From Deltaproteobacteria bacterium (GTDB taxonomy: Bacteria > SAR324 > NAC60-12): 64,000 bases of DNA. The stretch's first letter is position 1. Each line of letters starts with the position of its first letter. This document shows, in pieces, positions 29,001-35,000 of the stretch. The position numbers were made by a program. The stretch is taken from positions 36,700 to 100,699 of the forward strand of contig JAYOTF010000007.1 of NCBI GenBank assembly GCA_038150265.1. The letters are read 5' to 3'.

Positions 29001-32000
29001 ATTTTGCCGATGACCAGCAACAGCGCCCTGGTGTCTCGGCTCACGCAGCAGACGCTGACTGGGCTCCGGCTGGCCCTCCGGGAAACTCCGGAGCCGCGTG
29101 CTGATCAGGCGACCGCGATTCCCCCGGTGGTTCCGGAAGGGACGCCGTCTTCCGTGTTTCCCTTCTCCAGTGCGCCTCCGCTGCAGGAACCGCAGTGGGA
29201 GCTGGTCATCCGGGACTCGGGGCTGAGTCCGGAGCAGACCCGGCGCGTTTTTGCGGAACTGGTGGAGGAAGAGCACGTTTCCGCGGTGATTGGTCCACTG
29301 ACGCGCCGGACCTCCGAAGCTGCAGCCGAGGAGGCCCAACGTTGGCAGGTGCCGCTCATTTCGCTTTCCCTGACCTCCAGCATTGCGGAGCTGGGTGACT
29401 TTGTCTTCCGGAACAACCTGAGCTGGGAGCAGGAAATCCGGGACCTCCTGCGCTACGCGTGGGACTACCAGCAGGTCCGCCGGGTTGCGATGTTCTACAC
29501 GGACGAGCGGGAAGGTCGGGAGAAGGCCCGTTTGTTTTTGCAAGAGGCTGAGCGCATTGGACTCGACGTGGTGGCCGTGGAGCAGTACCGCTCACAGGAA
29601 GCGAGCTACGTTCATGAGTTTGAGGCGGTGACGGGGATGCTGACGGCGACCTCGGAGCGCGATGAGCAGGCACTGAAGGAGCTACAGGAGAAGCGAGAGC
29701 CGCACCTGAACCTGGATGCGGTCTTTGTTGCTGCCGGAAGCCGGGGGCTGGCTGACCTGAAGGTGCTGCTGCCGTACATCTCGGTTTATGAGATGGATCG
29801 CCTGCTGGTGCTGGGGGACAGTGGGTGGAGCAACCAGGCCCTGCTGTTTGCGCAGGGGCGGGAGCGGCTTCGGCGCCTGGCGCTTGTGGACAGCTTCTTT
29901 GCCCAGAGTCCACAGCCGCAGGTGCAGGCCTTTGTGGAGGCACATGAGCGCATGATGCTGAGCGCGCCCAGCTACCAGGGCCCCACCGACTACGTGGCCT
30001 ATGCGTATGACACCCTGATGCTCCTGAAGCAGCTGCTCCGGAACCCCCGGAACCACTCTCACCGGGAACTCCGGGATGCCCTCTTGCAGCTCAAGGGCTT
30101 TCAGGGAGCCACTGGGCGGATTCACTTTGACGAAACCGGCGAGATTCAGCGCGAGATGCAGCTGCTCACCATCCGGAACGGACGCTTCACGCCCATTCCC
30201 TGATCACACCGAAAGCTCGGCCTCTGCGACCACAATGCCGTCGGCATCGGCGTAGATCCAGTCGCCGGGGGACACCGGCACACCGGCCAGGGCCAGGTCG
30301 ATGTCTTCCTGACCACGGTCCAGCTTGATGCTCTTCCGAGGGTTGGTGCCCAGCGCCCACACGCCAATCGGCATGGCCGCAATGTCCTCACTGTCGCGGA
30401 TGCACCCCTGCACGATCACGCCGGCCCAGCCGTTTTCCACCCCAAGCTTTGCCAGGTTGTCCCCCAGGAGGGCACAGCGCATGGACCCTCCCCCATCGAC
30501 CACCAGCATGCGTCCCTGACCCGGCTGGCCGAGCAGCTTCCGGACAAAGGAGTTGTCTTCAAAAACACGGAGGGTCTTCACGGGGCCGTGGGCCCGGGTG
30601 TGCCCTCCGTAGCTCCGGAATCCGGGTTCAGCAACGCGCAGGTCTTCACCAAATTGATCATACAGGTCCGCTGTCTTCATGCTCATGGTTGGGGGCTTTC
30701 AAAAAGGTTGTCGGAGCCGTGCGGAAAGCACTTGACTCCCTGGCGGGAGAAGTCTATTTTAATTGATTTGCGTGGCAAAAAGCTACTTGAGATTCAACCC
30801 GAATAAGATCCTCCATGCCGATTACCATTGAAGTCCGGGACGGAAACCTCTCCAAGTCGATGATGCAGCTCAAGCGAACCCTGATTCGAGAGGGGCTGTT
30901 CAAGGAAATCAAGAAGCGCAAGTTTTACGTGAAGCCGTCGGTGGCCAAGCGCCTCAAGCGGGAAAACGCGGAAAAGCAGCGCAACAAGGACATCAAGCGC
31001 GAGATTCGCGCGGCCCTGAAAGCGGACTTCTGAGACGGAGTGGGGGGAGCCTTCCCCCCAGCCTGCCTAGTCTTTGAGCAACTGAACCACCTCCCCCGGT
31101 TCGGGAAAGCGCCCCTCCTGGTGCTTGGAAAAGACGATCTCGCCTGCATCCTTCACTTCAAACGCTCCTTTCGCTCCAGGAATCAGTTCGGTTTCCACAC
31201 CAAACGCCTCCTGTATTTCTGCGGCCAAACTGGTCGCACGCGGCAGGTAGCTTCACATCACACAGTATTCAATGCTGAGCTTCATTGTCAGGTCTCCTTA
31301 AAGAGTCGGGGATGGGATCAGCCGGAACGTCTCGCAACAGGCGTGCAGTGACGGCTTCCGACTTTCGGGAAAAGAACGAGGTTCGGGACCGCTTCGCTCG
31401 CGGGGTGGTCCTGAGAGACGATCGCCGAGGGGCCGGTGGCTGCCACCTGCTGCTGACCTGATCGACCCAATCTCCCAACGGAAGGGAGAAGAAGAGGATG
31501 GGGCTCAGGCGCATCAGGCTCCACAGTCCCACCACCAGCACCCCGGTGGTACTGACCCAGGGCCACGAACTGTTGAGGATCCACTCGCGTCCAATCTGGC
31601 CAAAGTAGCCCTCTTGCCAGTGCAGGCTGACGGCCAGCGAGCGGGAGGTCCCGAGCAGGCCATGCAGGATGCTGGTGGAGGCCACCAGGAGCAACGTCAG
31701 GAGCAGCCGGCTGTGCAGGAAGCTGTACTGCCGGGGCTCCAGGAGCAGCTTCCGGGACCGAGGCAGGCGCCACAGCAGCCACGCCAGCAGAAAGGCCGAG
31801 CTGCCAAACCACTCCAGCAGGGTGCCCCCAAACAGCGCTCCGACGATGCCGAGCCAGTTGTGAATGCCGTCCACCGGAGACGCCTGATGAAACAGCGTTG
31901 GGTCCTGAAAGTGGGCGCTGAGCAGGCTCACGGCCAGAACTCCCCCCCAGAGCAGGTGCCCCCACTTCCGGGAGTCCGGAGCTTCATACGACTGAGAGCC

Positions 32001-35000
32001 ATGATGGATGGAAGTCGGGTACATGGTCAGGCGTTGCTTCGGGTGACAGCGGCAGTGACGACCTGGGCGACCGAAGGCAGCACGTACGTTTCAATGCTCT
32101 CCCCCAGAAACGCCAGCTCGCGGACCAGGGAGGAGCTGATCTGAAAGCGCTCCGGACGTCCAAACAGGCAGAAGGTTTCGATCTCCGGCACAATGACGGC
32201 GTTTCCCAGCGCCTGCTGCTGTTCCGGATGAAAGTCGTCCACGCTCCGGAGGCCCTTGATGATGGCACAGGCCTGCTGCTTCTGCGCATACCGGACGGTC
32301 GCACCCGTGAAGGCATCGACGGTGACGTTATTGAGCTGGTAGTGATCCACATAGGCCTGCATCATCTCGACCCGCTCCTGCTGCGTAAAGAGGTACGCCT
32401 TGCTCGGGTTCACGGCTGCTGCCCAGAAGACGTGGTCGAACTGACGTGCGGCCCGGATGAGGATGTCTGCATGCCCAAAGGTTGGCGGATTGGAGCTGAT
32501 CGGGTAGACCGCGATGTGAGAGGCCATGAGGTCAAAGCGATTGGGTTCGAGCCTGGCGGACCAGGTCGTGAAGGGTCGTGAGCGCCTGCAGCGGGGTCAT
32601 TTGGTCCGGATCAAGGGACTTCAGGGTTTCCAGCCACTCCGGAGACTCGGCAAACAGCGAGAGCTGCGCCGGTGCAGCATCCGGCTGAGAACGGGTCCAG
32701 TGAGCGGCTTGCTCCTCGACCTGAGCCAAGGGACGCGGTGAGGGCGTCAACTCCGGAAGACGGTGTCCGACCGAAGTCGCTTCCAGCTCCTGCATGACTT
32801 GCAGGGCGCGTTCCACAACCGGAGTGGGAATGCCGGCCAGCCGAGCGACCTGAACACCGTAGCTCTTGTTGGCCTCGCCAGCAACAATCTTGCGGACGAA
32901 GACGATCTCCTCCCCGTGTTCCTCGACGACCACGCTGAAGTTCTCCACCCCGTCCAACTCCCCGGCGAGGGCGTTCAGCTCATGGTAGTGGGTGGCGCAA
33001 AGGGTCAGGGCCCCCAGCTCATGGAGGTATTCCGCAATCGACCAAGCGAGGCTGATCCCGTCAAAGGTGCTGGTGCCTCGCCCGATTTCATCAAGCACCA
33101 CCAGGCTTTGCGAGGTCGCCTGATGCAAGATGGCGGCGGCTTCATTCATCTCCACCAGAAAGGTGCTCTGCCCCTGGCTCAGGTTGTCGGAAGCCCCGAC
33201 CCGGGTGAAGATCCGGTCCACCAGCACCAGGTGGGCCTCCTCGGCTGCAACAAAGGACCCCGCCTGCGCCATGAGCACATTGAGGGCAATCTGCCGCATG
33301 AAGGTGCTCTTTCCTGCCATGTTGGGACCGGTCAGGAGCATGACGCGGCATCCGGAGGCCTCCAGGTGAATGTCGTTGGGGACAAACGGTTCGCCCATCC
33401 GGATGCTCTCAATGACGGGGTGCCGGGAGTCCCGGAAGCGGATGCTGCCTGGAGCGCCCAGGGGCTTGAGCTGCGGGCGGACGTAGCGGTTCTGTTCCGC
33501 CGTGTGGGCCAACCCGGCCAGCACATCGGTCTCGGCAACCAGCTGAGCTGCTTGCTGAACCCGGGTGGTCTCTGCGACAATCTGGGCCTTGAGCGCCTGA
33601 AACAGCTCCTGTTCCAGCTTACCAATGCGCTCCTCTGCCGTGAGGATTTTTTCCTCAAATTCCTTCAGCTCCGGGGTGATGTAGCGCTCGGCATTGACCA
33701 GCGTTTGCTTGCGGATGTAGTGCTCAGGCACCGCGTCCTTGTGCGCATTGCTGACCTCAAGGTAGTAGCCAAAGACCTTGTTGTAGCTGATCTTGAGAGA
33801 GGAAATGCCGGTGGTGTCTCGTTCCCGTTGCAGCACCCGGTTGAGGAACTCCTTGGAGTTCCGGGAAATCTCCCGCAGCTCGTCCAGCTCTGCGGAGACG
33901 CCTTCGGCAATGTAGCCCCCTTCTGAGAGCCGATGTGACGGCGCTTCCAGCAGCTGGTGCTGCAGCCGTTCCAGCAGGTCGGTCAGTGGGTCGAACTCTG
34001 CCCCAATGGCACGAAGCCGGGCGGCCTCCAGGCGTTGGTAAAAGACGGGAAGCTGCTGCAGGGGCTCCAGCGATTCCCGCAGGCCAACGAGATCCGGAAT
34101 GCCAGCGACGGGCAGGCTGAGGCGTCCAATGAGCCGGGGGAGGTCCTGGACGGTCTTGAGCAGGTTCCGGAGCTCCTCGCGGAGCAGAAACTGGCGGGAG
34201 AACTCCTCCACGGCGTCGTGCCGCTCCTCAATGGCCTCGACCTTCAGCAGCGGGCGGCGGAGCCAGTGCCGCAGGAGCCGGGCGCCCATTGGCGTGACGG
34301 TCTGGTCCAGGACATGGAAGAGGGTGTGCCGCTTCTGTCCGGACTGTGCCTCAAACAGCTCCAGGTTCCGGAGGGTGGTTTCGTCCAGCAGCATGGCCTG
34401 TTCCACCGAGTGCAGCCGCAGCGTCGTCAGGTGGGTGAGGTTGCACATCTGCGTGTCTTCGAGGTAGCGCAGAACAGCTCCGGCGGCTCGCAGTCCATGG
34501 ACCTGGTCTTCTACGCCAAAGCCGGCCAGGTTCAGGGTCTTGAAGTGCCGGCAGAGGTTCCGTCGTGCCGCCTCTTCGTCAAAGTGATAGGGGTCAATGA
34601 ACTGGCAGCGTCCGGGGGTGGCCTCGGTGCGCGGGGCGTCTTCGGCAAGCGGGGGAGCAACCTGGTCCAGCAGCTGTCCCAGGCGGTGGGTCAGGGTTTC
34701 AAGGAACTCAGACTCGGCGGTGGAACGGCTCTGAGGCAAGAGGATTTCCTGCGGATCCAGTTGCATCAGGAAGTCGTACAGGCGTGGGAGCTGATCGACG
34801 GCAAACTCGCACAGCTCAAATTCGCCGGTTGAGACATCGGCATAAGCGACCCCGAGCCTTTGGGCCTTCAGGTCCAGCGATGCAGCCAGCAGGTAGTTGT
34901 TGCGGTCCGGATCGATCAGTTGCGGAGAAACCGTGGTTCCGGGGGTGACAATGCGGACCACCTCGCGGTTGACGATCTTCCCGGTGGCCTGCGCAGGATC

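Follow-up and report, generated by a model that had tools for sequence, protein, structure and literature searches.

FtsK is reduced to its membrane domain across the phylum SAR324, with altered XerC and XerD, an intact recombinase, and a candidate site at the terminus

FtsK-activated XerCD recombination at dif is the textbook end of circular chromosome segregation in bacteria. SAR324 keeps RecA and RuvABC, so chromosome dimers are still expected in its genomes of 1.5-12 Mb, yet it has dropped the FtsK motor. By domain content, motor and gamma domain are lost lineage-wide and only the FtsK membrane domain is left. We describe the gene from a 64,000-nucleotide window of contig JAYOTF010000007.1 (assembly GCA_038150265.1; the genome, 97.8% complete, is G000 below) and compare it with a phylum set of 88 genomes. 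The machinery that the motor served is likewise dismantled, as judged from its motifs and genes: neither KOPS polarity nor a canonical dif was found, the XerC sequence has decayed, and XerD is altered. The altered XerC and XerD, an intact recombinase, and a candidate terminus site point to an atypical route for separating joined chromosomes. We propose, with a probability of roughly 60%, that FtsK is now a part of the divisome, that a single recombinase acts independently of FtsK, and that XerD serves as a terminus factor. New here are the arrays of half-sites, a palindrome at the terminus, and a third recombinase that is intact.

A membrane-only FtsK

The gene, ftsK-N, starts 2 nt beyond the stop of the upstream gene, which we take to be coaD although Pfam itself reports CTP_transf_like (Table 1). 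FtsK_4TM is the sole family match in ftsK-N (E 2e-10, 41 bits). The survey's finding, a 251-aa FtsK with the membrane domain only, holds: no PF01580 motor in G000 exceeds its cut-off, an unfiltered custom motor HMM gave a best E of only 0.08 over 46,522 six-frame ORFs, and tblastn with the E. coli FtsK motor or gamma domain found no match. The survey had listed the weak membrane-domain match as a threat, which it is not, since the cut-off is 23.1 bits and a SAR324 profile reaches full-length FtsK, its nearest motor-bearing relatives, at E 5e-18. The top 124 matches of this profile are all motorless, at 95-506 aa; a weaker search for longer homologues, using the single ftsK-N protein, returned none.

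Table 1. Coordinates in the window, or on other contigs of G000 where a contig is named
Feature	Position	Strand	Basis or remark
ftsK-N, FtsK cut down to membrane domain plus 66-aa basic/Pro-rich tail, 251 aa	31269..32024	-	ORF and Pfam
FtsK_4TM domain, aa 24-185 of ftsK-N	31470..31955	-	Pfam
Linker remnant of ftsK-N, weakly conserved, no motor behind	31272..31469	-	Codon comparison
coaD-like cytidylyltransferase-family gene, directly upstream of ftsK-N	32027..32527	-	Pfam CTP_transf_like
Rdx-family selenoprotein gene (CxxU, in-frame TGA)	31067..31285	-	PF10262, E 9e-21
mutS, upstream of coaD (context only)	32532..35486	-	
34-bp palindrome	G000 C45:18888-18921		Between innermost half-sites
Third tyrosine recombinase gene (C68 recombinase)	G000 C68:3869-4837		

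The Rdx gene overlaps the ftsK-N stop by 17 nt, so no motor gene follows, and the neighbourhoods of FtsK-N loci rule out a split gene with a downstream motor. Of 30 FtsK-N loci, 3 have Rdx as the neighbor and 20 have coaD no more than 1.5 kb away, bearing out the description of coaD as the usual neighbor. The stop is free of indels in contigs from four sequencing runs, one covering the whole stretch and two, from other studies, covering the stop. Sequencing or assembly error and a pseudogene are ruled out by these independent contigs, by the 81 genomes with FtsK_4TM, and by the codon changes relative to G047, which number 53 synonymous and 33 nonsynonymous in the membrane part and 13 and 29 in the linker remnant. 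By this codon comparison, purifying selection acts on the membrane domain. Residues D36, P37, N51, G54, G57, G62, G69, and G137 (numbered by the first row of alignment A1) are invariant in 27 orthologues, and the predicted FtsK_4TM fold is a helical membrane bundle (mean pLDDT, 85.6). No FtsK-N structure was found in the PDB by sequence or by fold search. RNA sequencing runs contained small shares only, and the one that was mapped left ftsK-N uncovered.

In a domain census for which each control was positive in 8 of 14 genomes, FtsK_4TM is present in 81 of the 88 SAR324 genomes (34 of the 35 high-quality ones), the motor in nine, and gamma in one, on a probably contaminant contig; G000 has no gamma domain. 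The short form is thus found throughout the phylum, as had been claimed, and the 79 motorless genomes include three single-contig genomes that carry FtsK-N. The motor is indeed rare and distant, but it is not confined to one genus: eight of the nine genomes belong to three genera of one distant family, and the ninth, G038, has a full-length ftsK. We dropped the latter as a native gene because its 17-kb contig bears a second ispH (35% identical) and is probably contamination, with transfer as a further possibility; G038 also has the short form. Seven genomes of family f7 encode a membrane-plus-motor protein of 563-601 aa whose membrane part is unrelated (hhalign probability, 0.4%); it lacks gamma and forms a separate clade.

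The G000 divisome is complete, with FtsZ, FtsA, FtsW, FtsI, FtsQ, FtsB, and L-like genes. Together with the lineage-wide loss of motor and gamma and the purifying selection on the membrane domain, this argues for the surveyed split of FtsK's division role from DNA pumping. FtsK-N is very likely still a divisome component, recruiting or holding FtsQ-FtsL-FtsB. A predicted complex of FtsK-N with FtsQ/L/B lends weak support, with a score of 0.39 against 0.00 for the best control; 116 of the 157 solved pairs and 2 of the 215 mismatched ones attained the mark for such scores, and of these, only 18 solved pairs, along with both mismatches, scored 0.60 or less. Runs of this complex share at least 93% of contacts, with partner pLDDT of at least 64. 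FtsQ was detected in 12 of the 88 genomes, short diverged families being under-detected.

Altered XerC and XerD and a polar half-site array

XerC and XerD orthologues are restricted to two of the seven families, f1 and f2; a search of the remaining five families (24 genomes) found none. The survey placed Xer-like genes at C35:4601 and C45:17258, and these positions stand; its statement that XerC and XerD are kept does not, as they occur only in f1 and f2 and both have lost catalytic residues. SAR324 XerD carries R148K, H244R, and H270Y/F, each in 45 of 45 sequences, giving an active site of K-K/R-R-R-Y/F-Y in place of R-K-H-R-H/W-Y, and 110 of 120 database homologues have the full K-R-R-Y-Y pattern. 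Its best family is TIGR02225, below the cut-off (235 versus 330 bits), and in a tree of nine of the 45 sequences it groups, with a weak 82% support, with E. coli XerD. The XerC label reflects terminus position and best family score rather than a tree. XerC was rightly suspected of being degenerate: the canonical R-K-H-R-H/W-Y set is complete in none of 30 sequences, although R247 is retained in 29, the C-terminal His in all 30, and the Tyr in nine. By residue conservation, XerC has decayed, and the XerD active site is altered and fixed. We dropped loss of E184 as proof of a lost FtsK-gamma contact, two intact XerD relatives also being without E184.

KOPS polarity is absent from 46 contigs oriented by GC skew, as judged only by GGGNAGGG and by general octamer skew; the KOPS leading-strand fraction is 0.59, versus 0.61 for 133 equally G-rich octamers, and KOPS in an E. 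coli sample is distributed 7:0. The survey had found no dif site, and a canonical 28-bp dif with both arms is no more frequent than its control in the 88 genomes (58 pattern matches versus about 92, a hand sum), with none in G000. A left arm with ATAA accompanies 2 of 50 half-sites. The XerD half of dif, ATATTATGTMAA, occurs nine times in G000, always on the G-rich (leading) strand, and the reversed and 60 permuted motifs have no copies. These half-sites converge on the GC-skew switch, and in G046 they converge on a cumulative skew maximum inside xerC. The half-site 14-mer is found 83 times versus 33 for the control in f1, 8 versus 1 in f2, and 24 versus 28 in families without this XerD. Half-sites are scarce in the six GC-rich f2 genomes examined (0-1 at one mismatch), all four counted in G040 point away, and the C-rich strand holds 3 of 21 further half-sites. 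The f2 convergence points were picked after the motifs had been seen, with skew maxima 0.7-36 kb from the nearest site, and GC-skew sampling is too weak to fix the terminus in single-contig G039 and on the long contigs of G035 and G038. A promoter or LexA box was rejected, as only two of nine half-sites lie at gene starts and the half-site is not palindromic.

SMC-ScpAB is present, with ScpA also in lineages without this XerD. By analogy with XerD at the XDS sites of Bacillus, SAR324 XerD may well bind the polar array as a nonrecombining terminus factor that would most likely unload SMC-ScpAB. Alternatively, XerD could be rewired yet active, the Arg having moved from 148 to 244, and either nick and relax DNA at half-sites, as a type IB topoisomerase with site specificity would, or recombine the terminal palindrome (see below) without FtsK activation. 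The substituted positions show no drift, each new residue being invariant, and all 45 sequences keep the nucleophilic Tyr, which XerC loses. XerD may still cut DNA, since Y279, R247, E151, and K/R172 are retained in every one of the 45 sequences and Cre R173K is reported active in vivo, W315Y/F tolerated, and W315Y functional in vivo; moreover, a single PF00521 match in most f2 genomes, perhaps meaning no Topo IV, would suit a topoisomerase. Nonetheless, we consider an active XerD unlikely: Arg at His II (H289R) is reported to inactivate Cre in vivo (PMC2943603), the partner XerC lacks a catalytic set, an intact alternative recombinase exists, and recombination between the direct repeats on C45, spaced 0.3-3 kb apart, would delete genes. 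A similarly small probability attaches to the array being a polar replication-fork trap, septum anchor, or segregation signal read by XerD and XerC, with SMC uninvolved. The array's strict polarity and the way it converges on the skew switch do resemble fork-trap geometry, and the conserved R247 and C-terminal His would fit XerC as a co-reader, but the motif is the XerD arm of dif, SMC unloading is reported for XerD bound to dif-like sites in the terminus (PMC11840125, PMC11894783), and we found no precedent in the literature for a Xer protein in a fork trap.

A terminal palindrome and intact recombinases

The 34-bp palindrome is intergenic, single-copy, located at the skew switch, and conserved over five genera. 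Unique in G000, it occurs in 14 f1 genomes and at 53 metagenome loci, and all 13 half-sites at these loci are directed toward it; it was not found on the terminus contig of G046 or, in 12 of 25 f1 neighbourhoods, next to xerC. All seven active-site residues are intact in 120 of 120 homologues of the C68 recombinase. This gene adjoins the palindrome at none of the 53 loci, and with gene and site apart, their pairing in f1 is a guess. In three f2 genomes (G012, G009, and G001), a Cre-like gene has a palindrome 50-70 bp upstream, within the convergence zone. The Cre-like active-site set is intact in six of six proteins, one with Trp at His III, and the f2 enzymes are 22-25% identical to Cre (E 1e-21 to 6e-14). 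No clear upstream site was seen for the Cre-like genes of G064, G067, and G068, and G002, G065, and G066 have no tyrosine-recombinase match. Neither the C68 family nor the G064 Cre-like protein passes the NCBIfam Xer cut-offs, and the candidates fall far below every cut-off for XerS, XerH, and XerA, with XerH at just E 5e-05. HerA, telomere resolvase, and MukBEF were not found as substitutes in G000, where an apparent break in recA is a run of N.

We infer that dimer resolution probably needs no FtsK and is the work of one intact tyrosine recombinase, whose target would be a single palindromic site of the dif/lox kind at the terminus. The f2 Cre-like gene product would act on its own adjacent palindrome, and in f1, including G000, the C68 recombinase would act on the 34-bp palindrome. 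It is improbable that dimer resolution has instead been abandoned, as in the 12.2% of proteobacteria reported without dif/Xer (PMC2731167), with the third recombinase and the palindrome as a domesticated mobile relic or regulator site. Three genomes without a recombinase match and the unlinked f1 gene and site would fit abandonment, but the conservation, copy number, and position of the palindrome, the intact recombinase in 120 of 120 homologues, and the adjacency of gene and site in three f2 genomes speak against it. Least likely by far is a diverged or separately encoded motor serving FtsK-N, or a linear chromosome: genomes are incomplete, short families are under-detected (as with FtsQ), and f7 has its membrane-plus-motor protein, but that protein is unrelated in its membrane part and lacks gamma, 79 genomes are motorless, G000 has no HerA, and none of five genomes searched has a telomere resolvase.

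Discussion

In the reading that we prefer, ftsK would have been stripped of its C-terminal two thirds in a SAR324 ancestor. More tentatively, chromosome resolution may have become wholly uncoupled from division: FtsK may be a pure divisome subunit, undescribed FtsK-independent recombinase-site systems may have arisen twice (in sister families, with different enzymes), and a K-R-Y XerD may read a polar terminus array that replaces KOPS and motor, unloading SMC or nicking DNA. SAR324 would then offer natural separation-of-function alleles, a division-only FtsK and a binding-only XerD. With one enzyme named and a 34-bp site defined, how dimers are resolved when FtsK and dif are missing can be put to a direct test in E. 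coli, and an autonomous recombinase-site pair could serve genome engineering.

SAR324 FtsK-N shares the membrane domain and its signature with FtsK/SpoIIIE and with the laboratory construct E. coli FtsK(1-210). The FtsK N domain is reported to act in division and to hexamerise alone, and an E. coli strain with N-only FtsK to filament and lose viability (PMC3870252). In contrast, the SAR324 form is natural, lineage-wide, and stable, without linker, alpha-beta motor, or gamma. In streptococci, a single XerS adjoining its terminus site difSL is described as having replaced XerCD, with a catalytically defective XerD-like protein, YnbA, retained (PMC1914069). XerS still needs FtsK, whereas SAR324 has no motor; YnbA is called phage-like and does not bind difSL, whereas SAR324 XerD groups, if weakly, with XerD and has a matching half-site array. 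Archaeal XerA/dif and P1 Cre/lox are reported to use one recombinase and one terminus or lox site with no need for FtsK (PMC2958812). The SAR324 candidate sites share with lox no more than general geometry. The XDS sites of B. subtilis are reportedly oriented, and SMC unloading there is said to be independent of XerD catalysis. B. subtilis and SAR324 are alike in having XerD, several dif-like terminus sites, and SMC-ScpAB (PMC11840125, PMC11894783, and PMC10945525, as far as these reports describe the Bacillus system). In Bacillus, XerD doubles as an intact resolvase alongside translocases, whereas SAR324 XerD would keep SMC unloading as its sole job.

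The membrane-only FtsK in the window

The ftsK gene in the window (ftsK-N) encodes a protein whose sole Pfam match is the membrane domain FtsK_4TM (aa 24 to 185), and it stands in the order mutS, coaD, ftsK-N, Rdx selenoprotein gene. Contigs from four runs show no indel over this stretch, in keeping with the survey's finding that FtsK is here a 251-aa, membrane-domain protein. A motor hidden elsewhere is the weakest alternative; in this 97.8%-complete source genome (G000) no motor was found with Pfam, with tblastn using E. coli FtsK, or with a custom HMM run unfiltered over all six-frame ORFs (best E value, 0.08). 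Codon changes between G000 and a comparison genome, G047, number 53 synonymous and 33 nonsynonymous in the membrane part and 13 and 29 in the tail.

The divisome of G000 includes FtsZ (two copies), FtsA, FtsW, FtsI, FtsQ, FtsB, and an FtsL-like protein; one of the two ftsZ products has 676 aa, G039 also has two ftsZ genes, and ftsQ lies apart from ftsA. A predicted complex of FtsK-N with FtsQ/L/B is weakly supported, scoring 0.39 against 0.00 for the best control, in a score range that holds 18 of 157 solved complexes and also both mismatches that passed; the PDB yielded no FtsK-N structure that could have biased the prediction.

Coordinates of the principal features (window positions, or contig of G000 unless stated)
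Feature	Position	Strand	Remark
ftsK-N	31269-32024	-	ORF of 251 aa
Rdx-family CxxU selenoprotein gene	31067-31285	-	overlaps ftsK-N stop
Presumed selB-like gene	25986-27908	+	3 kb from Rdx selenoprotein gene
Small basic ORF, putatively rpsU-like	30815-31033	+	counterpart also near ftsK-N locus in G035
xerD*	C35:4601		XerD-like
xerC*	C45:17258		XerC-like
Terminal palindrome, 34 bp, imperfect: TATATGTACGAAA ATTAACAT TATCGAACATATA	C45:18888-18921		between innermost half-sites, about 0.7 kb from xerC*
C68 recombinase	C68:3869-4837		intact tyrosine recombinase
ftsZ genes	C12:44754-46781; C25:10774-11757		
FtsK-like motors, 563-601 aa	L037-L043 (G070, G072, G076-G080)		three f7 genera
28-bp repeats with half-site	G040:C408:53301-55477 (L277, L278)		five, near-identical

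Distribution of the short form

The short form is spread through the phylum, as had been claimed: among 88 genomes, FtsK_4TM occurs in 81, the motor in 9, and the gamma domain in 1, with G052 gained as a positive by an improved profile. Neither the Pfam census nor this profile detected any FtsK part in two single-contig genomes of family f3 (G064 and G065); G065 still has FtsZ, an FtsB-like protein, RecA, and ScpA. In 27 short orthologues the stop lies 123 to 408 aa beyond the N-x-x-G motif, compared with 1,268 in E. coli (2 of 30 loci were unparsed, and the full-length gene was left out). In families f2 and f7, ftsK-N is followed by rho and by a presumed prfA, a shared neighborhood which indicates a locus inherited once. 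When 1.8 billion proteins were searched with a profile, the top 124 matches were short and motorless, and motor-bearing FtsKs started at an E value of 6e-19.

Motors had been placed in one distant genus; they occur in eight genomes of three genera of the distant family f7, plus G038. Seven of those eight carry a protein that lacks the gamma domain, has an unrelated membrane segment of its own, and forms a separate clade, and the remaining f7 matches are fusions. In these (L044 to L046, in G069, G077, and G079), FtsK-type ATPase domains are fused behind other domains, with SMC-like ATPase genes adjoining in G069, and they are possibly defense loci. The single full-length ftsK, on a 17-kb contig (G038:C11, L051), was rejected as a native gene, since G038 also has the short form and the contig holds an additional ispH that shares just 35% identity with the resident copy; it is probably foreign, through bin contamination.

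Altered recombinases and a polar half-site array

That XerD- and XerC-like recombinases are kept holds for G000, but not for their catalytic residues or for the phylum. The XerD-like gene (xerD*) was matched in 69 of 88 genomes at an E value of 1e-30, with 0 over the cut-off; true orthologues occur in f1 and f2 only, and in other families the strongest of the matches that were aligned are intact, unrelated integrases. Relative to E. coli XerD, all 45 orthologues carry R148K and H244R, and H270 is Y in 44 and F in one; R247, Y279, E151, and the helix positions R220 and W224 do not vary. R-K-H-R-H-Y is kept in 7/7 control integrases, and among 120 database homologues of XerD*, 110 show the full altered pattern and 2, both distant, the canonical one. 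Among Cre mutants, one with Arg at His II has no activity in vivo, R173K works in vivo but not in vitro, and W315Y/F is tolerated (PMC2943603). A rewired yet active XerD* is a less likely rival, favored by the tolerated substitutions; taken together with the Cre mutants, the residue changes make XerD* probably, though not certainly, unable to recombine. For XerC*, the complete catalytic set was found in 0/30. A further f7 tyrosine-recombinase family (L316, L317, L319, L320, L324, and L326) has catalytic residues replaced in several members (K or T at Arg I) and two that are near-intact.

The half-site ATATTATGTMAA, which matches the center plus XerD arm of E. coli dif, occurs in nine exact copies in G000 (about 61% GC), every one of them on the G-rich strand; neither the reversed pattern nor any of 60 permutations occurs. 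The remaining two genomes of this genus hold 4 and 7 copies, against 0 for controls. As plain counts over mutually related genomes, a 14-base half-site gave 83 versus 33 for the control in 45 f1 genomes, 8 versus 1 in 19 f2 genomes, and 24 versus 28 in 24 genomes lacking XerD*. On G046 C10 the cumulative skew maximum (22,604) falls inside xerC*, with half-sites on the + strand to the left and - to the right, and skew flips at xerC* in four further f1 genomes; xerC genes are reported to be mostly close to dif (PMC3025954). Flips from + to - predicted beforehand at convergent half-site pairs were seen in f2 genomes G012, G001, G009, and G013, with maxima 0.7 to 36 kb from the nearest half-site. 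Exact half-sites on 13 contigs, with the f2 split points placed by hand after the motifs had been seen, point inward in 23 cases and outward in 4, all in G040, where outward-pointing 28-bp repeats coincide with a local skew peak. Against generality, six GC-rich f2 genomes have only 0 to 1 half-sites each, and the C-rich strand carries 3/21 further ones. Beside the half-site the left arm is AT-rich only. The array could instead be a fork trap or an anchor, a less likely rival that its fork-trap-like polarity favors.

A terminal palindrome and candidate recombinases

Four AT-rich palindromes in G000 share the geometry of the terminal palindrome, so conservation, not shape, sets it apart. Its arm, with two mismatches allowed, has a single place in G000. 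It adjoins xerC* in 13/25 f1 neighborhoods examined, lies elsewhere in G039, and could not be found on the contig of G046. Scanning metagenomes added 53 loci, with the same neighbor genes in 34 and without them in 19, mostly short; 13/13 half-sites are oriented toward the palindrome, and skew is + on the left in 12 and - on the right in 11 of 14 long loci.

Besides the C68 recombinase, G000 has one other intact tyrosine recombinase, a presumably integron-like integrase. The best 120 of 146 C68 homologues (58 to 88% identity) all keep seven active-site residues, and several carry the name SAR324; the enzyme itself passed none of the Xer family cut-offs. Its gene is never beside the terminal palindrome, and in G047 a gene of this type lies 4 kb from a half-site. 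In f2 genomes G012, G009, and G001 a Cre-like recombinase gene sits in the convergence zone, and 50 to 70 bp upstream of it is a related palindrome; orthologues in G064, G067, and G068 (39 to 52% identity) have no clear site. Identity between the Cre-like and C68 enzymes is only about 25%, and the best G000 match to the Cre-like profile is C68.

RecA is present in 5/5 genomes, and RuvABC, SMC, ScpA, and ScpB are also present; RecA/RuvABC recombination gives chromosome dimers, so dimers should form. The canonical dif pattern shows no enrichment over control, and the KOPS octamer GGGNAGGG (308:215 on the leading strand; 7:0 in a 102-kb E. coli sample) is no more polar than other G-rich octamers. 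Plain abandonment of dimer resolution is a less likely alternative, for which dif-less proteobacteria (PMC2731167) are a precedent. The octamer with the strongest strand skew in G000, CGAGGGTG (131:33), is a possible Chi-like signal. Family f2 and genera g38 to g43, also without an FtsK motor, have mostly one PF00521 match and thus probably gyrase without Topo IV.

Relation to known systems

The simplest reading joins FtsK-N serving division, an autonomous recombinase that would resolve chromosome dimers, and XerD* as a putative terminus binder. Of the proposed split between division and DNA pumping, the lineage-wide, membrane-only FtsK is real and the interpretation is supported in part. To our knowledge, bacterial single-recombinase systems all still use FtsK. 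Among the open papers listed by the searches there was nothing on a natural N-only or a SAR324 FtsK, and a mention in a survey of FtsK or divisome distribution is possible in subscription papers or supplements. FtsK-gamma contacts have been described (PMC5052618). Precedents are laboratory FtsK-N (PMC3870252), XerS alongside a defective XerD-like protein (PMC1914069), XerA acting without FtsK (PMC2958812), and, nearest for XerD* at the terminus, SMC unloading by XerD (PMC11840125, PMC11894783, PMC10945525, and PMC8242196). Each part has a precedent; their combination was not found in print in the open literature searched.
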